The notes under the pieces: generated by a model
What the model saw: only the letters and a program-made list of their open reading frames with translations
The model's database searches: none
Told to the model about the DNA's origin: nothing
Translations under genes and position numbers: made by a program
Part shown: positions 20,031 to 34,020 of the stretch, in pieces
Layout: each line of letters begins with the position of its first letter
Numbering within the stretch: position 1 is the first letter of the stretch
DNA from: Opitutales bacterium
Lineage (GTDB): Bacteria > Verrucomicrobiota > Verrucomicrobiia > Opitutales > UBA953
Direction of reading: 5' to 3'
DNA length: 40,000 bases
Assembly (NCBI GenBank): GCA_017531845.1
Contig: JAFXKI010000003.1
Location: 160,354-200,353 of the forward strand

Positions 20031-20624
20031 TTAAAAAAGGATGTTTTTGATTTTCACCCAAAGTTTGGAGAGCCGGCTTTCGGCGACAGTCTTTTGCTCG
20101 GCGAGGAGTTTGCGGACGGCTTCGCGCGTTCCCGCGTCGTTTTGCGCGGCTTTGAGGAGCGCCGTAATATCTTTTTCCGTAAGTTTCTGTCCGGTTGCGA
20201 CCGCCATGCGTGCGGCTTGCAAGACATCCGCAACGCCGGAGACAACGGAGTCGAGCGTGAGTTTCGTCGCGTTCACCTTGCGGGATTTGTAAACGCCCCA
20301 AAGCAGGAGCAATCCGGAGGAAACGGCTCCGATGATGCCGCCCTGGGCTTTGCCGACGGCGAGCGCGCTCTCGACGGTCGCTTCCGTTGCGGCGGAAAGC
20401 TCCGTTTGCGTTTCGACGGCGGAAGCCGGCACTTCGGTTTGCGTTCCCGTAGCGGGATCGGTGGCGAGGTATTTCGTCGAGCCGTCTTCTGCGGGAACGC
20501 CCGTTACGGCGACTTTTTCGCCGGAGGCACTTTGCGTGTAGGCGATTTTTTCGCAGGCGGTGAAGGCAAAGCTCGCGAACAATGCGAGAACAAACAGGAG
20601 GATGTTGGTGATTAGGTTTTTCAT
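20031..20624 (-). CDS. Hypothetical lipoprotein with an additional internal TM segment (spanin-like topology is speculative)
   Basis: The ATG at 20624 gives MKNLITNILLFVLALFASFAFTAC (lipobox). A Thr/Ala/Glu-rich linker follows, then a TM segment GGIIGAVSSGLLLLWGVY and a helical C-terminal tail. The track start 20732 adds a non-hydrophobic extension and is rejected. Confidence 0.6.
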   Translation of the reverse strand: MKNLITNILLFVLALFASFAFTACEKIAYTQSASGEKVAVTGVPAEDGSTKYLATDPATGTQTEVPASAVETQTELSAATEATVESALAVGKAQGGIIGAVSSGLLLLWGVYKSRKVNATKLTLDSVVSGVADVLQAARMAVATGQKLTEKDITALLKAAQNDAGTREAVRKLLAEQKTVAESRLSKLWVKIKNILF

Positions 20625-20734
20625 AAAGGGAAGAATGGGCGGAATGGGAGCACACACCGCCCGGACACGCATGCCCGAGCGGCGGTTTTCACCCTCAAAC
20701 AAAACGACGATTGCGTCTCTCTCAAAAAGCATGC

Positions 20735-20762: not shown

Positions 20763-20852
20763 GTCTAAAAATGCGGCGGAAACCGCGCTTGCGGCGGGGA
20801 AAATGAGATTAAAGGTTAAAGATTAGAGTTTAGAGGTGAACGCGAGGGGGCA

Positions 20853-20884
20853 CAAAAAAGCCGCCGTCGGATTCCGACGGCGGC
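20853..20884 (-). terminator. Intrinsic terminator closing the low-GC minus-strand cassette
   Basis: Stem GCCGCCGTCGG/CCGACGGCGGC (20860-20870 with 20874-20884), preceded on the plus strand by A6, which gives a T6 run on the minus strand. It lies 8 nt after the stop at 20892. Confidence 0.75.
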
Positions 20885-20891
20885 GGGACGT

Positions 20892-21149
20892 TTATCTGTT
20901 CAATGTGGAGATATTAAACTCCGAAAAGCAAGCGTTTATCGAACTTTCTGCCCTGGTTAAGAAAAAGTTTATTTTCCCTGCGATTTCATCGTCTCCGGGG
21001 CGAAACTTCTCATCAGCTAAACGCCTGTATTCGAGAACTTGCGCCTTTGCTGAGTCAACCCCGTTCAAAGAACTTAGATGTTTTTTTCTAAACGACGGAT
21101 CTCCAAGATCCCAGCACCATTTTCGGATTTTTTCGTATAAATCTTTCAT
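20892..21149 (-). CDS. Hypothetical 85-aa protein (last gene of the low-GC cassette)
   Basis: ORF only; no recognisable motif. Followed directly by a strong terminator. Confidence 0.45.
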   Translation of the reverse strand: MKDLYEKIRKWCWDLGDPSFRKKHLSSLNGVDSAKAQVLEYRRLADEKFRPGDDEIAGKINFFLTRAESSINACFSEFNISTLNR

Positions 21150-21277
21150 AAAAAAAAACTATCTTCGGACCATGAAGCCTCCCCGATTCGTTCCTTCGGA
21201 AAAGCCGGACACCTGCTCCTTGTCGGTAATCCTTCCCCTAAACAGGGCACTACCGCAGATGCTTATATCATGCCAAT

Positions 21278-21727
21278 TTATTCTTCCGTTGCATTTCGAG
21301 TTAAGTTGTAGACGCAATATGTTAAAAAAATAATCAAGGTAAGCGAAATCAACGTTGAGGAAAGCAAGATGTTAACAAGCCACGGGAGCGGATATGCAAC
21401 AATTGCAATTGATGCACAAAACACAACCGCAAGCCACATCAACGTAAGGACATGGGTAAAAACGAGGTCGTCAAAACTCCCTCGCTTTTTGTAGTGCTCA
21501 AAATAGGCTCGCCCTCCGAGTGTGAATAAAAATGTGGCGATTGTCGCCAAGAATCCGGCAACCGTAAACGCAAATCCGGATAAAATGGACGAGAGTTCTC
21601 CGGTGTGCGCACAAAATTTCTCCAACAACGGCGCAGAGAAATTACAGCTTAGAATCCCGAAGCAAATGCCCCCAAGCGCTAATGTTGCCAAAACGTGACA
21701 AACTCGAAATATCAGCGTTTCCGTCAT
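21278..21727 (-). CDS. Hypothetical integral membrane protein, about 4 TM helices
   Basis: Four hydrophobic segments: VCHVLATLALGGICFGILS, LSSILSGFAFTVAGFLATIATFLFTL, VFTHVLTLMWLAVVFCASIAIVAY, LVNILLSSTLISLTLIIFLTYCVY. A GGGAGAAAG Shine-Dalgarno-like element sits 5 nt before the ATG. An in-frame TGA lies 15 nt upstream, so this is a separate gene. Confidence 0.65.
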   Translation of the reverse strand: MTETLIFRVCHVLATLALGGICFGILSCNFSAPLLEKFCAHTGELSSILSGFAFTVAGFLATIATFLFTLGGRAYFEHYKKRGSFDDLVFTHVLTLMWLAVVFCASIAIVAYPLPWLVNILLSSTLISLTLIIFLTYCVYNLTRNATEE

Positions 21728-22598
21728 AAAATGCTTTCTCCCTCATCTCTTCAACGCGATCGTTTAGTTGTGCATTTCCGTTAAAGTGGTCGTAAATTTT
21801 TGAAATAATCTCCGACTCCTTCCCCGTGCCGATATCTTCGGTAAATTTACAGTCCCTATCAATTAAATAATCTGCCAACGCGTCTTCTGCAGAAGTACGA
21901 GCACGAACCATCAATTTGTCTCGTCCGTCCCCTTCGGAAGCCGTTTCCAACTGTTTATATACATCACCGATATCCCGCTTCCTTTTGGCACTCAATGTTA
22001 CACAAATATTGTCTATCTTGTCTTTGTCTTTTTCCCTTCCCAAAAGGTTTATAACCCGATTAAAAAGCGGATTTCCTTGCTTTACACGTACTGAAGTGCT
22101 TGCGATTTGTGCCATTGCCTGCGCCTGGGCACTTGTCGTTAACGACCCGACGGACTGTAAAAAAAGAACCCACTTCTTCACTCGGAGTTTCTTTTGGATA
22201 AGCTCGTTCAAAAATTTCTCAAGCGCAGACATACTTGGTCCGCGAAGAGTCGATGCAATTGCAATTACGTCTTCCGACACTGCAAAGTATGAAGCAAATC
22301 CGGCGGTTTCATTTTCCCTTAACCGCTTTTCGATTTCGACAAAAGAAAGCGTCTTCATGTCTACAGCTTTTATAAGCTCTTGAGAGCGCGTCGCGACAAG
22401 CGTGTAAACATTAGGCTTCCCGGTCTCGGACAAGAAAATTGTTTCCCCGTCTCTCCCTTCAAGCCCTTTGGAAAAATCTTTTTCCGAAATACTGACGAAG
22501 TTTTTCAAGATGGGACGCAAATCGCAACACACACGCGGAGGATTTTCCGAACGGGATTTTCGGTTTTTGAAGTAGTAATGGTAGTAGCTGAGTTTCAT
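21642..22598 (-). CDS. Hypothetical 318-aa protein, no recognisable domain
   Basis: Long low-GC ORF on the same strand as its neighbours. Its 3' end overlaps the next gene by 86 nt in another frame. I recognise no known motif. Confidence 0.6.
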   Translation of the reverse strand: MKLSYYHYYFKNRKSRSENPPRVCCDLRPILKNFVSISEKDFSKGLEGRDGETIFLSETGKPNVYTLVATRSQELIKAVDMKTLSFVEIEKRLRENETAGFASYFAVSEDVIAIASTLRGPSMSALEKFLNELIQKKLRVKKWVLFLQSVGSLTTSAQAQAMAQIASTSVRVKQGNPLFNRVINLLGREKDKDKIDNICVTLSAKRKRDIGDVYKQLETASEGDGRDKLMVRARTSAEDALADYLIDRDCKFTEDIGTGKESEIISKIYDHFNGNAQLNDRVEEMREKAFYDGNADISSLSRFGNISAWGHLLRDSKL

Positions 22599-22720: not shown

Positions 22721-23815
22721 TTACCCTTCAGCTGAGTACATTTTGACAGCATTCCGGAGCTTGTCCGCCAATTTGAAAATATCCGTGAGCTTTGAGATTG
22801 CGCATCGGTCCTCCGTACGTGCCTTGTCAACGAAAATGACCTCATGTCGCTTGGTGTTGAACAGGAGTCGGCAAATCGGTTTCCGGTTGTTGTCGTCGAG
22901 AAGAATTGCGCAGTAGCTTTTTGCGTCGCGCATAACGACTCGTTCCGGATCAATATCTTGGGCAAGGATTGCACAAATATATTGATAGGCAGTAACTTCT
23001 TCTTCTGTCGTCACAACTCCGTCTGATTCGGCACCCAAGGGTTCCGGAGCTTGCTCTTGCGGGGGCAAAGAGGTCGTTGACGTATTTTCCTGTGCAGGAG
23101 CGGTGCCGTCTATGGCATTTTGAAGACGCTCGTTTACGCGCCCGGAAACCCATTCGCGAAATGCCTCTCCGACAATCTGCGTAAATTGGATCAGTCGCTG
23201 TTGGTTGAGTACGCCGGAAAAGACTCTTTTTGCGAAAAGTTTTACGAAATCTTCCGATGGCTCCGAATACTCCGCAGAAAGCAGCACTCTAATCTGCTTT
23301 TTGTACTTTAACTCAGATGCGTTGCTCAAAATGTTTTCCTCGTTATAGAGAGACTTCCCAAATTTCTTCAGCTCGTTGGCAATCTTTGTATCTACACGCT
23401 CCATTGAAAATTCAAAGAACGGTTTTTCGTCCATTTTGTTGGGAATCTCAATATCCGTGTAGAACTGATAATCAATCCCGTTTGTCAAAATCGCAAAACG
23501 TGCAGAGGTCGTCGAAAAATAACGGAAGAGTTGAGAAGCGTGATTTAAGTTTAGCTGCGTGCCGACAGACTTGCACTCAATCAAAATAGCCGGACGATCG
23601 CTACGCATGATTACGTAATCCACCTTCTCGTTTTTCTTGGTGCCTACGTCTGCCGTAAATTCGGGAACCACTTCTGAGGGGTCAAACACATCATACCCGA
23701 GTGCCTGAATAACAGGCATGATCAGTGCGTTTTTTGTCGCCTCTTCGGTCTGAAGCATTTCACGAATCTTGGGGATTCTGTTCGCTATTTGAGAAAGTGA
23801 GTCAATTAGATCCAT
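22721..23815 (-). CDS. HsdR_N-type PD-(D/E)xK nuclease-fold protein (type I restriction enzyme R N-terminal-domain-like), 364 aa
   Basis: The N-terminal block TEEATKNALIMPVIQALGYDV...PEF....KVDYVIM....PAILIECK carries a D...E-x-K core, typical of HSDR_N_2-type proteins. The C-terminal half is a conserved-looking unknown domain. Confidence 0.7.
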   Translation of the reverse strand: MDLIDSLSQIANRIPKIREMLQTEEATKNALIMPVIQALGYDVFDPSEVVPEFTADVGTKKNEKVDYVIMRSDRPAILIECKSVGTQLNLNHASQLFRYFSTTSARFAILTNGIDYQFYTDIEIPNKMDEKPFFEFSMERVDTKIANELKKFGKSLYNEENILSNASELKYKKQIRVLLSAEYSEPSEDFVKLFAKRVFSGVLNQQRLIQFTQIVGEAFREWVSGRVNERLQNAIDGTAPAQENTSTTSLPPQEQAPEPLGAESDGVVTTEEEVTAYQYICAILAQDIDPERVVMRDAKSYCAILLDDNNRKPICRLLFNTKRHEVIFVDKARTEDRCAISKLTDIFKLADKLRNAVKMYSAEG

Positions 23816-23843: not shown

Positions 23844-24254
23844 TTAGTCGGAGGTCTTTCGGAAAATGTTCGTTACCGTGGATTTTTTCTGTAAGACAGG
23901 AACAAGGTTCCCGTCTTCCGTGATGCGGGCGTTGCGGAGAGGTGTCATACCCAAATTACCGGATTTTGCATATTTTTTAGCGCTCTTCTCCGCGTTTTTA
24001 GAAATTTTAGAGCGCGCTTTCGCCAGCTGATTAAGTGCTTTTGCTCGACCTTTCTCAGTCGACATGTCAAAGCGAGCCCCGCGCCCTCCTATGTATTTCT
24101 GAGGGTTTAAGTTCGTCCCAAAATCTCGATTCAATTTCTCGATAAAGGCAATGCGAATAAACGCCGACAATTCTTTACGAGACAAGAACTTGTCTGCCTC
24201 ATAAAGAACCTCCTCTTGTAGGGTGCATCCTATCATTTTCGACGTTTTCGCCAT
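23844..24254 (-). CDS. Putative ribbon-helix-helix (CopG-like) DNA-binding protein with a basic C-terminal tail
   Basis: From the ATG at 24254: MAKTSKMIGCTLQEEVLYEADKFLSRKELSAFIRIAFIEKLNRDFG fits a beta-strand, helix, helix RHH layout. Start choice is uncertain; the ORF is open to 24338, with alternative ATGs at 24236 and 24296. Confidence 0.5.
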   Translation of the reverse strand: MAKTSKMIGCTLQEEVLYEADKFLSRKELSAFIRIAFIEKLNRDFGTNLNPQKYIGGRGARFDMSTEKGRAKALNQLAKARSKISKNAEKSAKKYAKSGNLGMTPLRNARITEDGNLVPVLQKKSTVTNIFRKTSD

Positions 24255-24333
24255 TGAAAGTATTCTCACACGGCAAAACGGAGAAGACAAAGACATTTTC
24301 AAAAGTAATTTAATTTTTTTTGAAAAATACATT

Positions 24334-24380
24334 GACAAACTAATTTGTCTATTTTTAATAAACTAACAAATTAATTTGTT
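24334..24380. promoter_or_regulatory. Divergent promoter region with two related palindromic operator-like sites
   Basis: GACAAACTAATTTGTC (24334-24349; imperfect palindrome, one mismatched central pair) and AACAAATTAATTTGTT (24365-24380; perfect 16-bp palindrome) share ACAAAnTAATTTGT. TTGACA at 24332-24337 is a consensus -35 for the plus-strand operon. Confidence 0.6.
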
Positions 24381-24398
24381 AAAAAAAAAGAAACATTT

Positions 24399-24749
24399 AT
24401 GAAACACGAATTAAAGAAACATCACGATGCGACCCACCGAGCCGGAGAATTTTTCCCGCAAGGGAAAGCGAAAGAAAACGAGAAGTCGCGGCCTCCTGCA
24501 GATGATGAGTCCACGCGGCTTTTCCGCGAAGCGCTCAAAACGCTCAAGGTATCGGAGCGGAAAGCGCTTCTTGAAAACGCCGCAGTCATTGACGGCTGCT
24601 TGAAGAACGAAATTGAGCACGACGGCAAAGGCTTCCGCCGGAAACGGGGCTATACACTCTTTGTCGAAATCTACGAACCGGTTCCGAAAGAAGCCTTGAG
24701 GGACTTTTTCGGGAGGCTCATCCCCGCCGTGGGCAACGCCAAACACTAA
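24399..24749 (+). CDS. Hypothetical 116-aa protein directly upstream of cas1
   Basis: The ORF ends 12 nt before the cas1 start, on the same strand. No Cas4-type Cys cluster or other motif recognised. Confidence 0.5.
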   Translation: MKHELKKHHDATHRAGEFFPQGKAKENEKSRPPADDESTRLFREALKTLKVSERKALLENAAVIDGCLKNEIEHDGKGFRRKRGYTLFVEIYEPVPKEALRDFFGRLIPAVGNAKH

Positions 24750-24761
24750 CATCTAAACCGG

Positions 24762-25834
24762 ATGAAAACAGAATTAGAAATCGTGAAAGAGGGGTACCGT
24801 GCGGACGTGGCAGAAACGCTTGCCGCGATCGGAGGGAAACTGACGGGCGGGATGCTTGCGGAGCAGGACGGCGAAAGCGTCGACGTCCGCCTCGACGGAA
24901 AATCGATCGGGCGCGTTCCCCTCATCAACCTCGAAGGTATCGTTACACTCGGTTGGGACATTGCCTGTTCGCCGTCGCTCTTAGGCGCGTGCGCCCAGCG
25001 CGGTATCGTTTGAATCCGCACGGAAAATTTCTCGCCGCCGTTCACGGCTATCCGCACGGGAACGTCTTACTGCGCCGCAAACAACATCGTGTCGCGGACA
25101 ATCCGGCGGCATCGCTCGCCATCGCCCGCCGTTGCATTCAAGCAAAATTCGCCAATTGCCGCACGCTTTTGCGCCGCGCGGCACGCGAAGCTAAAGTGCC
25201 GGAAATCGCGGAAAAGCTCGGGCTCTGCGCCGACATTCATCACAACCGGATTGCGGAAACTTCACGTGCACAAAATGCCGATATGCTTCGCGGGATCGAA
25301 GGCGACACCGCCGCGCATTACTTTCGGTTTTTTAACGATTTAATTATTTCTCCCGACGGAAAGATGCGTTTAAACGGGCGTTCCCGCCGGCCGCCGCGCG
25401 ATCCCGTCAACGCGATTTTGAGTTTTCTTTATACTTTGCTCGCACACGATTGCCGTTCCGCGTGCGTTGCCGCAGGGCTCGATCCGCAAATCGGATTTTA
25501 TCACGCAGATCGCCCGGGACGCCCGGGCTTGGCGTTGGATTTAATGGAGGAATTTCGTCCGGTTTTTGCGGATCGCGTTGCGCTTTCGCTCATCAATCGC
25601 CGCCAGCTAAATTCCAAAGATTTTCAGTTCTTTGAAAACGGCGCGGTTTTGCTTTCCGAAGATGCACGAAAAACGCTTCTTCAAGTTTGGCAAGAACGTA
25701 AACGCGAAGAAATTACACATCCGGTTCTGGAGGAAAAAATGCCGCTCGGCTTAGTTCCGCTGATGCAAGCGCGATTGCTCGCGCGCCATCTGCGCGGCGA
25801 TTTTGACTGCTATCTCCCGTTTCTTTGGAAGTAA
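24762..25834 (+). pseudogene. cas1: Type I-C-like Cas1, interrupted by a single-nucleotide frameshift near 25008-25011
   Basis: Frame A (24762-25013) ends ...GRVPLINLEGIVTLGWDIACSPSLLGACAQRGIV then TGA. Frame B continues LNPHGKFLAAVHGYPHGNVLLRRKQHRVADNP...GRSRRPPRDPVNAILSFLYTLL...FYHADRPGRPGLALDLMEEFRP...LPFLWK, collinear with I-C Cas1 (e.g. B. halodurans). One extra T in the run at 25009-25011 would restore the frame. This could be real decay or a homopolymer sequencing error. Confidence 0.85.
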
Positions 25835-25839
25835 AAGCC

Positions 25840-26130
25840 ATGTTTGTTTTGGTTGCTTACGATGTTTCGACCTCGACGCCGGCGGGAACGCGGCGACTTT
25901 CCCGTATTGCGAAAATTTGTAAAAACTTCGGGCAGCGCGTCCAAAATTCAGTCTTCGAATGCCGTGTCGATCCCGCGCAATGGGTTTCCCTGAAGGCACA
26001 GCTTCTGCGCGAATATTCGGCCAAAGAAGATTCGTTGCGCTTTTATTTTTTAAGAAACAACTGGGATCGCCGCGTCGAACACCACGGGAACAATCCCGGC
26101 TTCAACCCCACCCAAGACATTATTTTGTAA
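25840..26130 (+). CDS. cas2: CRISPR-associated endoribonuclease Cas2
   Basis: MFVLVAYDVSTSTPAGTRRLSRIAKICKNFGQRVQNSVFEC...LRFYFL is a typical Cas2. The ATG lies 5 nt after the cas1 stop. Confidence 0.85.
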   Translation: MFVLVAYDVSTSTPAGTRRLSRIAKICKNFGQRVQNSVFECRVDPAQWVSLKAQLLREYSAKEDSLRFYFLRNNWDRRVEHHGNNPGFNPTQDIIL

Positions 26131-26260: not shown

Positions 26261-26581
26261 ATGTTGGGATGGATTTACCTCTTGGTCGCCGCAGTGTTTG
26301 AAGTCGGTTGGCCGTTCGGTCTGAAAATGGCGGCAGGCTCGCCGCACAAATTCGCGTGGATCGCCTTCGCCGTCGTAGCCATGACGCTCAGCGGCGTTTT
26401 TCTTTATTTCGCACAAAAAACAATTCCCGTCGGAACCGCCTACGCCGTGTGGACTGGAATCGGTGCCGTTTGCACCTTCGCGATCGGCGTAATCGCGTTT
26501 CACGACGCGCTCAACCTCCTGCGCCTGCTCGGTGCGTTCTTCATCGTCGCCGGCGTCATCCTCCTCAAAATCGCCCACTAA
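26261..26581 (+). CDS. sugE: SMR-family small multidrug resistance / guanidinium exporter (SugE/Gdx)
   Basis: 106 aa, 4 TM segments. Contains ...EVGWPFGLK...PVGTAYAVWTGIGAV..., near-identical to blocks of E. coli SugE. Confidence 0.88.
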   Translation: MLGWIYLLVAAVFEVGWPFGLKMAAGSPHKFAWIAFAVVAMTLSGVFLYFAQKTIPVGTAYAVWTGIGAVCTFAIGVIAFHDALNLLRLLGAFFIVAGVILLKIAH

Positions 26582-28332: not shown

Positions 28333-28748
28333 CTTTTGGGAAGCCAGTTTAGAGTGAGTCCAATATAAACCCCATCCACGGGACCTGTCTATTTATTTCC
28401 CGTTTTGAGAAGAAAAATCGCCTTTCGCACATAAAAAATACGGGCACGCCCAAAGAGGTTGCCCGTATGTCCAAAGCCGGAGGCAATGGAGGGATGTGGA
28501 CGGGAGCGTCTTTTATCCCCGAAACAATGTCAAACAAATTGAAACATTCTGCAATTTTCAGCCACGGATTACACCGATTCCCACGGATAAATTAAACTCG
28601 CCCAACCAAAACCACTCTGCGTTCTCCGCGCACTCTGCGAGAGATTCATTCCCTGTTCCCGCCGCAGAAGGTCGCTGGATCCCGCAAAGGTAGCCCACCA
28701 CCACCTCTTGCTACGGGAATCGCCGCTCCCAAATAATCATCAATGCTT

Positions 28749-29800
28749 TCAGGGAGCTAATTCCGTGTCAGCTCCGCTCAAGCTCAAAAGATCGATGCGC
28801 TCCCGCGAAACAAGAATATTGTTTTCGACAAAAAGCCGAACAAGTTGTTTGCCGTTTATGAGAGAAATCGGACTACTTCTTTTCGGGTCTTCAGCTTCCG
28901 AACGCGCCCCCTCGAAAAATCACTTGTCGTGATAATCAACCCTCGCTCATCTGTAGCGAGGCTTCCGCGAACGCCTTGGACGACCGGAGCCTGAACGTTT
29001 TTCTTCCAGCGCTTAACCTGCACCGCCATTTTTATACTGACTCCGTCCGTTATCACCCACGTCCCGCGCACATCAATTCCGCCGTCGCCACTGCTACGAG
29101 TAACTTCCATTTCTTCAAATCCCATCGCGACAAGAAGTTCTCCTATTAACTCCTCAAAACGCACAGGAGACATGCTCATCAGAACTTTATGTAATTTCTC
29201 AAGTATAGACGCATTGTGCTTTTCGACTTGAGCTCGAAGCCCCCTGTCATTCTCAACCCCTCGATTCAAATCTACAAGCCCTCTGCCGAGCTGAACAAAT
29301 CGGGAGAAGTTCCCTTGACGTTGTTTCCGACGAATCTCCGTAAGAATCTGTGCATACATCGTTGCTTCCGGAGTTTGCCCGCTTGATTTAAGCCAACCTT
29401 GCCGCAATGCTGCATTCGTAATATCCCGGTAATGCATCGGTTTTCCGCCGCCAAATGTTTCAAGTACCTTTTGCGCACAATCCGTAAAAGAGTATGTTTT
29501 CTCCTTGTTACGTTTAATCCGCCCGGGATTATTCATGATCGGATGCGAGTTTGATGCCGACGGACCACATGCAAACCTCTTGGGATTCGCTCCGACCGCC
29601 ACAACTCCCGACTGAGGATTTTTCGACAAAACGTAAAGCCTTGCGCCGAGTGTCGCGACAGGTGTTTTACCGAAGGATTTTAGCTTCTTATCTAGTCCAA
29701 GACGGCATCCTTCCGCCCAAATTTGAGACACGGACATCGGCTCTTGAGCATCCGAAAGAACCATTTTCGCAAAATCGACAAAGGATATTTTTGAGGTCAT
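28749..29800 (-). pseudogene. mrr: Mrr-like restriction endonuclease (two N-terminal HARE/Mrr_N winged-helix domains plus an Mrr_cat domain) with a frameshift near the 3' end
   Basis: Catalytic region ELIGELLVAMGFEEMEVTRSSGDGGIDVRG...MAVQVKRW...GLIITTSDFS. After SDFS the annotated frame gives RGRVRKLKTRKEVVRFLS then a stop at 28856. The adjacent frame reads EGARSEAEDPKRSSPISLINGKQLVRLFVENNILV..., the canonical Mrr C-terminus, and runs to 28749. The shift falls in the C5/A5 runs at 28907-28919. The start is taken at the ATG at 29800. Confidence 0.78.
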
Positions 29801-29801
29801 A

Positions 29802-29836
29802 GGCGGGAACGTTGGAAAAACGCTAACGTTCCCGCC
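29802..29836 (-). promoter_or_regulatory. 12-bp inverted repeat immediately 5' of the mrr start codon
   Basis: GGCGGGAACGTT (29802-29813) pairs with AACGTTCCCGCC (29825-29836), with an 11-nt loop. On the mRNA the hairpin would end 1 nt before the ATG. It is built from the CGGGAACG word. Confidence 0.5.
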
Positions 29837-29953
29837 CAACAAAATCAATCTTTGCCTCAAAAAAACGCCCTTTAAAAATCCTTAATACTTCGAAAAAATC
29901 CCCCGGACAACTCACGCCTTTCCCGGAATACTCTGTCGGTAAAATTTCCTCCG

Positions 29954-30430
29954 ATGAGTCCACGAAAAAATCCTTACAAAAAACAAGCCTGCGTTCCCGC
30001 CGCCGTCAAAGATCGCTGGATTCCCGCAAATTCCGCAAAGGCAAAATCCTTTCTCCCTAAACTGAATCTGCACTCCCTCAACGTTCCCGCAGTGCAAAAA
30101 GCCGTCCTTTCCCACTGGGCACAAACCCTGGGAACGCCTTTCGCAAAGCCGTTTGAGTCAGCCGCGCTCGAAATTCTCGAAAGGGGAAAAGCGACCGACG
30201 AATCCGTATCCGAAGCTCCGCCACAAATCCTTTTTCCGGAACTCTTCGATGTCCCGTTTCCGCCGCCGAAAAAACCGAAATTCACCTTCATTGACCTTTT
30301 CGCCGGAATCGGCGGTTTCCGCATCGCCATGCAAAACCTCGGCGGCAAATGCGTTTTCTCCTCCGAGTGGGATTCCCAAGCCTCAAAAACATACGAAAGC
30401 AACTACGGCGAAATCCCCTTCAGTGATAAT
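29954..30430 (+). pseudogene. 5' fragment of a DNA (cytosine-5) methyltransferase gene (motifs I-II only)
   Basis: Motif I FTFIDLFAGIGGFRIA and the following CVFSSEWDSQASKTYESNYGEIPF are typical Dcm-type blocks. Similarity ends at about 30425, where GC content drops. No PCQ (motif IV), ENV or later motifs appear anywhere downstream. Confidence 0.75.
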
Positions 30431-30500
30431 CTTCGTAAGCCGTTGTTATTTACGCATAGTTCGTGTCCACACCCCAAAACAGTTGACGTATCAAAAACAA

Positions 30501-31145
30501 ATGTTCATCTCTAATGTCGCGCTTATGAAAAATACCAATCCACAAATACGACAGAAAATGAAGAATTTCTCCCAAACAATGTATGTTGCAATGTTTGCTC
30601 TAAGCATAATGAGAAAGAATCTTCCGAAAGAACAAATTAAACAGAAAGAACTATCTACCTCTATCCTCTCACTGCTGGAAAACTCCTCATCTATAATTCC
30701 CGAAGCATTAATGCCGCCCAAAAAAATGGGGCCAGAATCGATAACGCTTAACAGCGAAAACCCCATAGAAGTTTATAACCTCGCAGTGCAGAAGATTTTA
30801 GAGCTACTCGTCGTTGGACAAACAACATTACTCGAAGAGTGCCTTAATATAAGGTTTCCAGACATTAAAGAGGAAAAGTTGTTCAATAAAATGAAAATGT
30901 TGTCGTTCCCCCAAAATACAAAAGAATCTTGGTCTATAGAGGTGGTTTCTGCCCTACGCATTATGCGAAACAGCATTATTCACAACGACGGCATATGGGA
31001 CAAAGAGCCATTCCCTCAGGATAAAAAAACGCTGAAAGGCACCCCAATCAAATTAACATTTGATGACATATTCCGCTTTCGAAGAGCCGTGCGAACATAT
31101 GTAAACACAGTAATTCTAAAATCGAATTCTTCTACATCCCAATAA
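30501..31145 (+). CDS. Hypothetical protein with a HEPN-type Rx4H motif (putative RNase/abortive-infection-like)
   Basis: The low-GC ORF contains SALRIMRNSIIHNDG (R-N-S-I-I-H fits Rx4-6H) in a predicted all-helical context. Start at the ATG at 30501 or 30525. The track's upstream extension to 30153 is an alternative frame of the dcm fragment. Confidence 0.5.
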   Translation: MFISNVALMKNTNPQIRQKMKNFSQTMYVAMFALSIMRKNLPKEQIKQKELSTSILSLLENSSSIIPEALMPPKKMGPESITLNSENPIEVYNLAVQKILELLVVGQTTLLEECLNIRFPDIKEEKLFNKMKMLSFPQNTKESWSIEVVSALRIMRNSIIHNDGIWDKEPFPQDKKTLKGTPIKLTFDDIFRFRRAVRTYVNTVILKSNSSTSQ

Positions 31146-31458
31146 ACAACCACCTTCTGACATTCGCCCTAAAAAAATAAAGGTGCATCATAACTCATTA
31201 AATTCATCCTAATCTAAAGATTTAACCATCAAGCCATTTACAAACAAAAATTGACGTATTTGATTCACGTACTTTAATTTCAAATAGCATTCATTTCCTC
31301 TTTTTTGAAAATTGCCTCAAAACATAGTTCCACTGACACTCGATTTCCTTCCCTCTCTACAAAGTTCGCCGAATAAATCATTTACTAACGAAACGCCCCA
31401 CACTCCTGTATTGTGAGAATAATAACAGCCACCAATAAACATCGAAATCAATGCTATT

Positions 31459-32292
31459 ATGAATTGGATAATTAAAATTATTTTTTTCTTTAGTCCGAAG
31501 ATCCTTTCCGCAACCATGGTATTATTGCTTATTGTTTCTTGGATATTCCCCCGCGCATGCTCTGACCAAACCTATGCCACTTATTGTTCGATGTCAGATC
31601 CAGACAGGAGATTCGCTATGGCAATCCTTGAAAACTGTCAGGACAATTTAACTCTATTCATATCCATTGCCACGCTAATCTTTACCGGAATTGCCATCTT
31701 TGTTGCGTGCAGAATTAACGAATCGGTGCAAGCGGCAGAATGCACTAAGATTTATTTCTCCAAGAAGATGTTGAAATCGATACGAGTTCTTTTTGGATTA
31801 CGAGATAAACTTGATAAGCGAATAGGATTTGAAAATCCCAACACTAAACTGACAACCAGAAAACCTGAAAACAATTCAAAAAAACTCTTCGTTTTACACG
31901 GTGATGTGAAATCTTACCCGTGGACCGAAGAGGAGGACTGTGCACGTCGGATTGTGAAATCTTACTTCCAGCTCATCTACGAGCTTCGGCACAAAAGAAT
32001 CATCCCTATTAGCAAATACATGCTTGGGCGCTTATGCGATGTTGATGCTCTCCCCCTTTATTTTGAAGTCATAGAGCCCATGGAAAAAATTCTCAACAAT
32101 GGCTATAACACCGAACCCTTCTACTGCTTGATGAAAGATGTAAAGAACATTTACAACAAGAAAAGACAGCAAACCGCAAAAGTAGAACGTAAAAACCAAA
32201 AATTCCTCACCCAAGCCTCTGCGGATTTCATTGATTGGAAATCAAGTCAATCCATGGGCACTACTCCGAATACCCGGGGAACCGAGTCTTGA
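31459..32292 (+). CDS. Hypothetical membrane protein (2 N-terminal TM segments plus a soluble domain), 277 aa
   Basis: Hydrophobic segments MVLLLIVSWIF and LTLFISIATLIFTGIAIFVAC. No recognised domain. The start is uncertain (an alternative ATG lies at 31516). Confidence 0.5.
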   Translation: MNWIIKIIFFFSPKILSATMVLLLIVSWIFPRACSDQTYATYCSMSDPDRRFAMAILENCQDNLTLFISIATLIFTGIAIFVACRINESVQAAECTKIYFSKKMLKSIRVLFGLRDKLDKRIGFENPNTKLTTRKPENNSKKLFVLHGDVKSYPWTEEEDCARRIVKSYFQLIYELRHKRIIPISKYMLGRLCDVDALPLYFEVIEPMEKILNNGYNTEPFYCLMKDVKNIYNKKRQQTAKVERKNQKFLTQASADFIDWKSSQSMGTTPNTRGTES

Positions 32293-33673
32293 TGTATTCT
32301 TCTGCCTTTTTGTAGGGAACGTGCTTTGTTGCTCCGCCGAGTCGGAGGTAAAATTCCTTAAATTCATCCGGACTTAAAGTCTTTTTCCATGTTTTAGTTT
32401 CGGGCTCCTTACAAATGAAAATCGGGGTACTCGACTCTTGAATCGAAATCACAAAATAGTCTTTTTTCCCTGATTTTTCAGGAGTCAGTCTAAAAAGCAC
32501 ACCCGCGACAGCACGATTTTTAAACATACACTCAATCCGTTCCCGTAGGCGTATTGCGTATTTGTCCCAACGTTCCATCCCCTTTAACTTGTCCAAGCCC
32601 TCCGCTGCAAAGTCCCGCCCTAGACCGACAATTTTTCCCGAGTTATTTATTCCGACAAAAATTTTCCCGCCTGCATTATTTGCCATTCCCGCAATGGATT
32701 TTGCTAAAATCCATGCCTGAGAAATTGGATTCAATTCTTTAAGACGTTCAATATTGGTCCTATCTGCCTCTGTCTGTTCTTCTCCTTTACTTTCCAAAAA
32801 TTCTATAATTTTGGTATTCTTTGCTGCAGAAACGCCGGAGGCTTTAAACTCCACCGCATCCCCCTCCATCCCAAATTCGCTTGTTTTGTTATTATCATTC
32901 TCGTTTGATTTTTCCGCAGTCTGTTTATGCGCATTGTGCTCCTGCTTGACCTTTCCGCCTAAAATCTGGCATACCTGCTGAGAATTATTTTTTTCAGCAA
33001 GTTGTTTGGCTGTAAATCCGTCTTTTGTTTTTGCGTTTCTGTTCGCACCCAAATCCAACAACAACCGAACAATTCCTGCATGATTAAACCATGCTGCAAC
33101 ATGCAACGGAGTCCATCCCTTTTCCGTGCGCGCACCCAAAAGCCACTCGTCATCATCAAGTTCCTCTTCAACCGCATCTACGTCGCCCAACTTCACAGCC
33201 TTGTGCACTCCAGAAAACTTTGTCTCCACCTGCACGTCATTTTGCCCTCGCCGACTTTCTTTTCCCTTTTTCGCTCTCACAGAAAATCGTCCTCCGCCAC
33301 TCTTTAAAATCTCCAATACATCTCCATTTTTCCCAAGCACCGCCAAATCCGCCGGAGTATTCCCGTATTTGTCTTTCGCATTTACACACGCACCATAATC
33401 AAGCAACATCCGGACAACTCCTTTGGAATTTCCAATCACGGCAACATGCAACGCCGTCAAACCTAGTACACGTTCGCGTTGGAACGCCAAAGACTCGTCA
33501 TCATCAAGCTCTTCCTCGACAAATATAGAATCCCCGCAAATCGCACCGCAAAAGAATAAATTCCACGTCTTGCTTGTTTTTTCTAATTTCTCTCGCCACA
33601 CGTTCAGTCCGTGATTATTCTCCAAGATATTCAAAAATTTCTGTATTTTTTCACACTGCGACTTTCTGTTCAT
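32261..33673 (-). CDS. Ankyrin-repeat protein fused to a C-terminal AlbA_2 (Schlafen-like, divergent-AAA/DNA-binding) domain, 470 aa
   Basis: Two ankyrin blocks (GLTALHVAVIGNSKGVVRMLLDYGACVNAKDKYGNTPADLA; GWTPLHVAAWFNHAGIVRLLLDLGANRNAKTKDGFTAKQLA). The C-terminal ILAKSIAGMANNAGGKIFVGINNSGKIVGL ... YFVISIQESSTPIF ... FYLRLGGATKHV matches the AlbA_2 pattern (AfaNtxGGxlxiGvxdxGxivG). Confidence 0.72.
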   Translation of the reverse strand: MNRKSQCEKIQKFLNILENNHGLNVWREKLEKTSKTWNLFFCGAICGDSIFVEEELDDDESLAFQRERVLGLTALHVAVIGNSKGVVRMLLDYGACVNAKDKYGNTPADLAVLGKNGDVLEILKSGGGRFSVRAKKGKESRRGQNDVQVETKFSGVHKAVKLGDVDAVEEELDDDEWLLGARTEKGWTPLHVAAWFNHAGIVRLLLDLGANRNAKTKDGFTAKQLAEKNNSQQVCQILGGKVKQEHNAHKQTAEKSNENDNNKTSEFGMEGDAVEFKASGVSAAKNTKIIEFLESKGEEQTEADRTNIERLKELNPISQAWILAKSIAGMANNAGGKIFVGINNSGKIVGLGRDFAAEGLDKLKGMERWDKYAIRLRERIECMFKNRAVAGVLFRLTPEKSGKKDYFVISIQESSTPIFICKEPETKTWKKTLSPDEFKEFYLRLGGATKHVPYKKAEEYIKTRFPGYSE

Positions 33674-33759
33674 GCTTCATCAGTCTAGAAAAGAATACTC
33701 TGTCATGCCAAAACTTTTCTACTTGCAAAATTAATTCTAAAGGAAAGATAATCCCGAGC

Positions 33760-34020
33760 ATGCCTCGATACGAATACAAAATTTTAAGGATAGATGCTAA
33801 ATCCAGGCATCCATCCTGTAATTCAACGGTTCAATCATCCACAATTGATATATCTCTAACGGAGGCGCTTCTCTCCAAAGAGGGACGTGACGGCTGGAAG
33901 CTTAAGGGGTGCTACCCAGAACCTGCCGGTGGGGCGTGTGGCGGCCTTCTTCTATCCGTCTGCTTTGTTTTCGAACGTCGCATTATTGAAAGAAAATCCT
34001 ACTATGGCGACGACGATTAA
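33760..34020 (+). CDS. Small hypothetical protein, DUF4177-like
   Basis: MPRYEYKILRID...EGRDGWKLKGCYPE...FVFERR resembles the (M)YEYKvv...GWELv...fKR layout of DUF4177 (from memory). The track's upstream extension from 33574 looks non-coding. Confidence 0.4.
   Translation: MPRYEYKILRIDAKSRHPSCNSTVQSSTIDISLTEALLSKEGRDGWKLKGCYPEPAGGACGGLLLSVCFVFERRIIERKSYYGDDD

Follow-up and report, generated by a model that had tools for sequence, protein, structure and literature searches.

Introduction

Among type I CRISPR-Cas loci, 12% are isolated, and isolated cas loci are regarded as remnants of degraded systems (Zhang & Ye 2017, PMC5294841). Moreover, in Pseudomonas aeruginosa PA14 lysogens, transposition of the Mu-like phage DMS3 deletes CRISPR-Cas regions (PMC11406979). 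Here we analyse a cas1-cas2 pair at positions 24399-26130 of a 40,000-nucleotide (nt) stretch of DNA (G000:C11:160354-200353, hereafter the window, within which coordinates are counted) from a gut-associated group of Opitutales (Verrucomicrobiota) that includes Candidatus Spyradosoma. The genome comprises 1.69 Mb in 11 contigs, is 95% complete and has 52% G+C; the contig that holds the locus is 490 kb long, with the locus in its middle.

The pair is very probably what is left of a wrecked type I-C locus, in which part of a Mu-like prophage took the place of the interference genes and of the beginning of cas1, and in which a later 10-bp deletion broke cas1. It is a case of ordinary decay in an immune system: the module is not of a new kind, nor a new adaptation system standing on its own, nor a product of assembly error. 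A preliminary description of the locus had left two readings side by side, a decaying I-C remnant into which other elements had inserted and a repurposed Cas1-Cas2 pair under ribbon-helix-helix (RHH)/operator control, and it is the former that gene content, junctions and the phage origin of the insert support. The locus thus offers a case from nature, resolved to the base, in which the dismantling of a CRISPR-Cas locus is associated with a transposable prophage, and a natural counterpart of laboratory evolution in Mu-like lysogens. The lost interference genes have been replaced by phage-carried defence genes (RexAB and a nuclease), and the host keeps a separate type II system. Of wider interest is the possible remaining activity of the intact chimeric Cas1-Cas2 of a sister lineage.

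Compared with complete type I-C (Dvulg) loci, as found in a genome of the same genus (G012) and in metagenome loci from another species (L129-L135), the window has an identical repeat, a TIGR03640 Cas1, a Cas2 and a divergent upstream array, but the leader, the cas3-cas4 genes and the first ~16 cas1 codons are missing, cas1 is frameshifted and the repeats number two. The likeness to isolated cas loci, which are common (PMC5294841), lies in cas genes without a working partner set; here, however, the two deletion junctions and the DNA that took the place of the lost genes are resolved to the base. As in the DMS3 lysogens (PMC11406979), transposable-phage DNA stands where cas genes were deleted. 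There, intact prophages meet the host DNA at their own ends, whereas here all that is left is a 5-kb relic of the immunity region with one junction inside a phage gene, and autoimmunity is no more than a possible driver of the loss.

Results and discussion

Adaptation genes without effectors

The interval 24399-26130 holds four reading frames, all on the plus strand, which resolve into the following features (lengths in amino acids, aa):

24399-24749, plus strand: ORF-X (open reading frame X), 116 aa, first gene of a phage early operon, with a 60% homologue (P0007) in the Mu-like prophage L118
24762-24863, plus strand: phage early gene head fused in frame to cas1, first 34 codons
24864-25013, plus strand: cas1 N-terminal fragment, canonical codons ~17-64 by alignment to complete loci, ending in a TGA stop
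25008-25009, plus strand: site of a 10-bp deletion that shifts the cas1 frame, from alignments with relatives
25010-25834, plus strand: cas1 C-terminal fragment, TIGR03640 positions 68-340 (387 bits), PF01867 (268 bits)
25840-26130, plus strand: cas2, intact, full length at 96 aa, PF09827 (88 bits)

The frame 24762-25013 (83 aa) matches TIGR03640, the type I-C Cas1 model, at positions 12-63 only, and the C-terminal fragment spans the Cas1 catalytic domain by model match. Cas2 has the full length expected of a complete I-C system and is 87.5% identical to its G012 counterpart (aligned over 1-96). Cas1c is not the uninterrupted protein with a canonical N-terminus that such a system has: it is split into two frames, its first 34 residues are phage-derived, and 10 bp are deleted. 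A casposon or solo Cas1 is not indicated either, the best model being TIGR03640 and the protein 99% identical to the Cas1 of complete loci; there is no polymerase among the neighbouring genes, and terminal inverted repeats were not searched for.

That no cas3, cas5, cas8c, cas7 or cas4 lies upstream had already been pointed out, and the statement holds genome-wide. Profile searches of the whole genome returned nothing above cut-off for Cas7c, Cas8c, Cas5c, Cas3 or Cas4: TIGR01863, TIGR02589, TIGR01876 and TIGR00372 (Cas4) had no match, and TIGR01587 hit only generic helicases, below cut-off. With the seven proteins of the G012 I-C operon as queries, tblastn at E<=1 matched nothing in the genome but the pieces of cas1 and cas2 described here. 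The signature genes of a complete I-C system (cas8c, cas7c, cas5c and cas3), and Cas4 as well, are therefore missing, and what is seen (adaptation genes, no cognate effectors in the genome and signs of decay) is what characterizes a remnant or orphan cas locus. The preliminary description had cas1 and cas2 as I-C genes standing alone. This is right for the genes, with cas1 matching TIGR03640 in two frames, cas2 intact and the effectors missing, but not for the repeats, which are placed as in complete loci (see below). The genome also carries an apparently complete type II system ~159 kb away (G000:C11 ~342400-348770; L004 9409-15770), with Cas9 (1115 aa, TIGR01865), 27 repeats of 36 nt, and a Cas1 and a Cas2 that belong to it.

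The lesion in cas1

A 1-nt frameshift in a T-run of cas1 had been suspected, with an assembly error as a possible cause. Alignment shows instead that a net 10 bp have been lost at ~25008 that all relatives keep (CTGTTTCGTT in the sister lineages). G012, G017, G018, L115-L117 and L129-L135 have these bases; the window and L105-L114 lack them. As a substitute for read pile-ups, the lesion was judged from other assembled contigs, comprising ENA assemblies and Logan contigs of several SRA runs. Ten other contigs (from 10 runs or assemblies) are identical to the window across the lesion, with 0-1 substitutions in 1.7 kb, and on this comparison the deletion is genuine and reproducible. Mis-assembly or a split contig could in principle produce both a frameshift and missing effectors, the more so in a draft genome of 11 contigs and 95% completeness. 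But the same sequence, 10-bp deletion included, was recovered from different runs by different assemblers, once in a contig of 488 kb; the locus is mid-contig; and a loss of 10 bp is not a homopolymer error. An artefact of this kind therefore has next to no probability.

The two sister lineages (~95% DNA identity) have the same effector-less locus and the same fusion junction and have kept the 10 bp. One of them (L115/L116) carries a lesion of its own, a 1-nt deletion in cas1 near the fusion junction, and cas1 has thus been inactivated independently twice. The other, L117, encodes an uninterrupted chimeric Cas1 of 360 aa (TIGR03640, 434 bits). Counted by contig, cas1 is split on 13 and intact, in chimeric form, on 3.

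The stop of the N-terminal fragment overlaps a TTG (GTTTGAAT) at 25010-25013, which gene callers have taken as the start of the 274-aa C-terminal fragment. A translationally coupled two-piece Cas1 is conceivable, but its folding is unlikely because the break falls in the N-terminal part, ~64 codons into the canonical protein.

Phage DNA between the array and cas1

In DNA alignments with the complete loci, canonical cas1 homology begins at 24864, at a shared CAG in about codon 17. Ahead of that point, Cas1 residues 5-35 match residues 1-31 of a 280-aa early gene of prophage L118 (52% identity over 31 aa), and the match stops exactly at the junction 24863/24864. Since the resemblance runs right up to the junction, the odd N-terminus is the head of a phage early gene joined in frame to cas1, that is, a phage-gene::cas1 fusion. 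The suspicion that the non-canonical N-terminus marks a deletion junction was thus well founded, about the first 34 residues being foreign.

The DNA that precedes the fusion is of the same kind. ORF-X, which had been flagged as an unassigned frame, is present and has no family match in Pfam, NCBIfam, PADLOC or PHROG. Its relatives in a collection of 5.8 billion proteins make up only four protein clusters, three of which come from the same locus in the sister lineages. The fourth (P0007, 60% identity) heads the early operon of L118, divergent from a small, weakly RHH-like gene and followed downstream by a transposase (phrog_310), a MuB-like transposition protein (phrog_296) and Mu Gam (phrog_491). 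The AlphaFold model of ORF-X is poor (mean predicted local distance difference test score 46.5) and insufficient for a fold search. Between the array and ORF-X lie the following:

20031-20732, minus strand: 233-aa phage-derived gene, 45% identity to a gene of prophage L118
21278-22598, minus strand: RexB-like and RexA abortive-infection pair (RexB-like 21278-21727, RexA 21642-22598)
22721-23815, minus strand: 364-aa endonuclease with an HSDR_N domain (PF04313, PF13588; phrog_4225 endonuclease, 1.8e-120)
23844-24338, minus strand: 164-aa gene at the repressor position, divergent from ORF-X as is the 123-aa weakly RHH-like gene of L118; no family match of its own
24332-24382, no strand: two palindromic operator-like sites in the divergent promoter region, read in the sequence (inverted repeat I3, 88% complementary)

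RexA is well supported (PF15969, 121 bits; PADLOC 1e-39) and RexB was detected by PADLOC (3.7e-10), its Pfam score of 18.5 bits being below cut-off; adjacent RexA and RexB homologues, as a RexAB system requires, are thus in place. In lambda, the immunity operon reads cI-rexA-rexB and is divergent from the early promoter. The window recalls this arrangement: RexA and RexB are co-oriented with the gene in the repressor's place, and the early promoter diverges from all three; the differences are that the phage is Mu-like and from Verrucomicrobia, that a nuclease gene intervenes between repressor and rexA, and that the repressor is unclassified. Genes for a transposase, MuB, Gam, a terminase or a portal of this type of phage were found nowhere in the genome, nor was any homologue of the genes of L118 or the Mu-like phage contig L122. 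A Mu-like prophage proper (transposase A, MuB-like ATPase, Gam and morphogenesis genes) is thus absent, and immunity-region and late-gene relics are all that is present. Since these genes are lacking, the insert is a relic, and the 4.95 kb between array and cas1 are what is left of a Mu-like prophage's immunity region. This bears directly on the idea of a repurposed Cas1-Cas2 pair under RHH/operator control: the operators and promoter make up the early-promoter region left by the prophage, and this copy of cas1 is broken. As a weak possibility, the idea survives for the sister lineage with the intact chimeric cas1.

Within the relic, the RexAB part (20806-22550) is represented in the sister lineages by a different allele (RexA 53% identical) between flanks that are 95-99% identical, and there it includes extra genes, for SocA_Panacea or a protease of the SDH family, which suggests that cassettes have been swapped within the relic. 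Between lineages, ORF-X is hypervariable in its 5′ third (24400-24500), with 31 differences in 100 nt and a ratio of non-synonymous to synonymous rates of 0.7-1.1 over the gene, unlike the rest of the relic, which differs by <1%.

The mini-array and the layout of complete loci

On the other side of the relic are a minimal array and two further phage-type genes:

19912-20030, no strand: AT-rich gap of 119 nt with a small hairpin, not homologous to I-C leaders
19817-19911, minus strand: mini-array of type I-C repeats (repeat 19881-19911, 33-nt spacer, repeat 19817-19847)
19420-19794, minus strand: 124-aa gene adjoining the array, phage late-region relic (homologues 73-86% identical)
18732-19259, minus strand: 175-aa gene, phage late-gene relic (42% identity over 141 aa to a 164-aa gene of L122)

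These two repeats, the only I-C repeats in the genome, are identical to the repeat of the complete loci (G012, G017, L129-L135). The preliminary description had cas1-cas2 without an adjacent array and the only repeats 5 kb off in opposite orientation, but this is how the complete loci are built. In G012 the order is array(-), cas3, cas5c, cas8c, cas7c, cas4, cas1, cas2, and in G012, G017 and L129-L135 alike the array is upstream of and divergent from cas3. Mini-array and cas1-cas2 in the window therefore keep the side and relative orientation that they have in complete loci; what differs is the DNA between array and cas1, ~7 kb of leader and cas3-cas4 in the complete locus versus 4.95 kb of unrelated DNA in the window. 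Only two stretches of the window are homologous to the complete loci: the repeats with 3 further nt, and 24864-26130. Because the former ends 3 nt beyond the leader-proximal repeat, the I-C leader has not been retained.

The single spacer had no exact match in viral and metagenome collections. Two matches of 19-21 nt in IMG/VR fall within unrelated proteins and are attributable to chance, and among the spacers of relatives and of the host type II array none matches the locus or the phages. The sister lineages and contig L127 have one repeat only. In L127 (975-1160, aligned to window 19790-20035) that repeat takes the place of repeat-spacer-repeat between flanks 99.9-100% identical; L107, a cas1 contig from the same sample but not necessarily the same genome, carries a broken cas1. 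The single repeat of L127 could reflect recent loss by repeat recombination or collapse by the assembler. The one-spacer difference is best explained, from these alignments, by loss through repeat-repeat recombination. Acquisition by a Cas4-less machinery, for which the extra spacer and the T-ending repeat might be taken, was rejected: with a one-repeat strain of identical flanks, in a sample with a broken cas1, loss suffices.

Several of these features would also suit a different origin, in which a Mu-like phage captured mini-array and cas1-cas2, in the manner of inter-viral mini-CRISPR arrays, and delivered them inside a prophage. The array lacks an I-C leader and has only 1-2 repeats, phage-type genes stand directly on both sides of it in an order collinear with the phage map, and cas1 is fused into a phage early operon. 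But the phages at hand carry nothing of the kind: in L118, the fused head of 31 residues is all that matches cas1 or cas2 of the window, and L122 has no cas1 or cas2 match and no repeat-like sequence. The fusion, moreover, occupies the region of the transposase genes, so that no viable phage could have such a layout; array and cas1-cas2 have the order and orientation of complete host loci; the 124-aa relic occurs without CRISPR parts in a related species and is probably older; and no protospacer was found. Virus-borne mini-CRISPR arrays are short arrays in viral genomes that depend on host Cas proteins and have spacers against related viruses; here the flanks are phage relics, with no intact virus, no protospacer found and no host I-C effectors. 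We consider a phage-borne construct highly improbable.

A sequence of events and its difficulties

The order of events that we infer for the decaying I-C locus would be as follows. A complete cassette would once have stood here, with array(-), leader, cas3, cas5c, cas8c, cas7c, cas4, cas1 and cas2. About 7 kb of it, from the leader's first bases to cas1 codon ~16, would have been lost, with the 4.95-kb Mu-like prophage relic in its place. That relic is the prophage immunity region, made up of a repressor-side operon with nuclease and RexAB and of a divergent early promoter with two operators, after which come ORF-X and then the head (34 codons) of the early gene that follows it, which joins cas1 in frame. 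The 10-bp deletion would then have inactivated cas1 as well, in the clone to which the window belongs. What is left, with neither CRISPR RNA nor effectors and presumably without function, is an intact cas2, a cas1 pseudogene and two repeats around a single spacer; if cas1-cas2 are transcribed at all, this would now be from the early promoter of the phage.

Some features weigh against this account. First, the array is flanked on both sides by phage-type genes in phage-map order, which a simple insertion followed by deletions does not predict. Homologues of the 124-aa gene lie between Portal_Mu/F-like genes and a methylase in phage contigs L122-L125 (L121 has a relic), and the late region of L122, which is collinear with L118, reads TerL, Portal_Mu, F-like gene, 124-aa gene, methylase, 164-aa gene. 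The gene order of the window follows this map, with the mini-array standing where ~10 kb of phage genes would be. Such an order needs two relics or a more complex rearrangement. In the related species represented by L121, the 124-aa relic lies near purA without CRISPR parts or an ORF-X relic, and for this reason two phage relics of different age flanking the array are favoured, as far as gene order can tell. Second, the phage junction on the right falls within a phage gene rather than at an end of the phage, so that at least one secondary deletion is required. Third, the intact 360-aa chimera of one sister lineage and a synonymous bias (19:9, see below) hint at function after the fusion. As for the 175-aa gene, it has no Pfam or PHROG match; its designation as Mu gpG-like is unsupported by these databases, although a homologue in a Mu-like phage contig does exist.

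Substitutions in the orphan clade

For codons 36-360 of cas1, each change was assigned by site, the complete loci serving as outgroup. The orphan clade shows 19 synonymous and 9 non-synonymous changes (p 2e-6 to 4e-4 versus neutrality, depending on the mutation model), distributed by branch as follows:

L117 (intact cas1): 10 synonymous, 2 non-synonymous
stem of window and L117: 4 synonymous, 1 non-synonymous
window: 5 synonymous, 3 non-synonymous
L115: 0 synonymous, 3 non-synonymous

The excess may reflect a period in which the chimera worked, or equally recombination with intact alleles, and such alleles exist: the canonical 344-aa Cas1 of complete I-C loci is 99% identical to that of the orphan.

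These counts are one argument for an orphan adaptation or moonlighting module, in which, once the effector genes had gone, selection retained Cas2 and a phage-head::Cas1 chimera, be it to integrate spacers or in a non-immune role, and the window's copy was lost only very lately. In L117, an intact chimeric Cas1 and Cas2 do sit in the same effector-less context, the changes in that intact lineage number 10:2, and cas2 is intact in all lineages. The same lineages argue the other way, however, cas1 having been broken independently in 2 of 3 of them and the split form outnumbering the intact on contigs (13 versus 3). The I-C leader, Cas4 and every I-C effector gene are gone; the one-repeat strain with flanks identical to the window's makes the spacer difference best read as a loss; and with intact I-C alleles, 99% identical in protein, in a related species, synonymous-biased differences could be recombination imports. 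In this form the explanation is very unlikely. The claim that purifying selection has kept chimera and Cas2, effector-less and behind the prophage early promoter, with L117 intact and the window a very recent loss, we would likewise call unlikely; if it were true, it would imply a Cas1-Cas2 function independent of CRISPR interference.

Movement of the cassette and the host word

The preliminary description had also taken the module for an old resident that was not recently acquired, on the strength of four copies of a host word at core-like density. The cassette itself argues otherwise. Over cas1-cas2, the window is 97.5% identical in DNA to complete loci L129, L130 and L134, and its Cas1 protein 99% identical to the canonical 344-aa Cas1 of L129-L135, whereas the genes flanking those loci, in another species, are only 68-79% identical in DNA to this genome. 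It follows that the cassette moved between species recently, and I-C cassettes evidently move between species of this gut Opitutales group. A near-identical cassette in a different species with divergent flanks, which shares the word, leaves no ground for long residence.

The word, CGGGAACG, is the commonest octamer of the genome (5192 copies, 3.08/kb, ~90x the composition expectation). It is equally frequent on both strands, common to related species and depleted in phage-derived DNA, and it looks like an uptake-signal-like or other genome-wide word. The cas1-cas2 part has 3 exact copies rather than four (25057, 25379 reverse and 25883), or 2.4/kb, as against 0.6/kb in the phage insert, 0.5-0.6/kb in phage contigs L118 and L122, and 2.3-3.0/kb in the I-C operons of related species. 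In this group CGGGAACG separates phage from cellular DNA; it cannot show long residence in this genome, and word density as a dating tool was rejected because the donor-like species has the same word.

Complete loci were found at other sites, beside PEPCK in G012 and G017 and beside ArsC/HPF in L129-L135; no filled version of the window's own site was found among them. Homology to the complete loci ends exactly at the cas2 stop codon (26130), and the cassette has this same edge in three contexts, next to SMR (window), PEPCK (G012) and ArsC/HPF (L129-L135). The array is at the opposite end; the comparison across contexts covers the cas2 edge. On this evidence, the I-C cassette reads as if it moved as a sharply bounded unit. 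Elsewhere in the genome, a 3.2-kb segment with the pntAB transhydrogenase genes (L129:12166-15374 versus G000:C11:478105-481296) is 97% identical between this genome and the other species, with neighbouring genes at 65-79%, and is probably another recent inter-species exchange.

Neighbouring genes

The DNA to the right of cas2 lies outside the CRISPR cassette:

26261-26581, plus strand: SMR-family efflux gene (PF00893, NF000280), flanking DNA

As previously noted for this gene, then called sugE, it starts 130 nt after the end of cas2. Farther on, at 28480-34000, is a further low-GC block, with genes for a truncated DNA methylase, for a nuclease of the Mrr type with HARE-HTH and for a protein that combines ankyrin and SLFN/AlbA_2; L115/L116 do not have this block. 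The whole interval from the acyltransferase gene to purA behaves like a defence-island hot spot.

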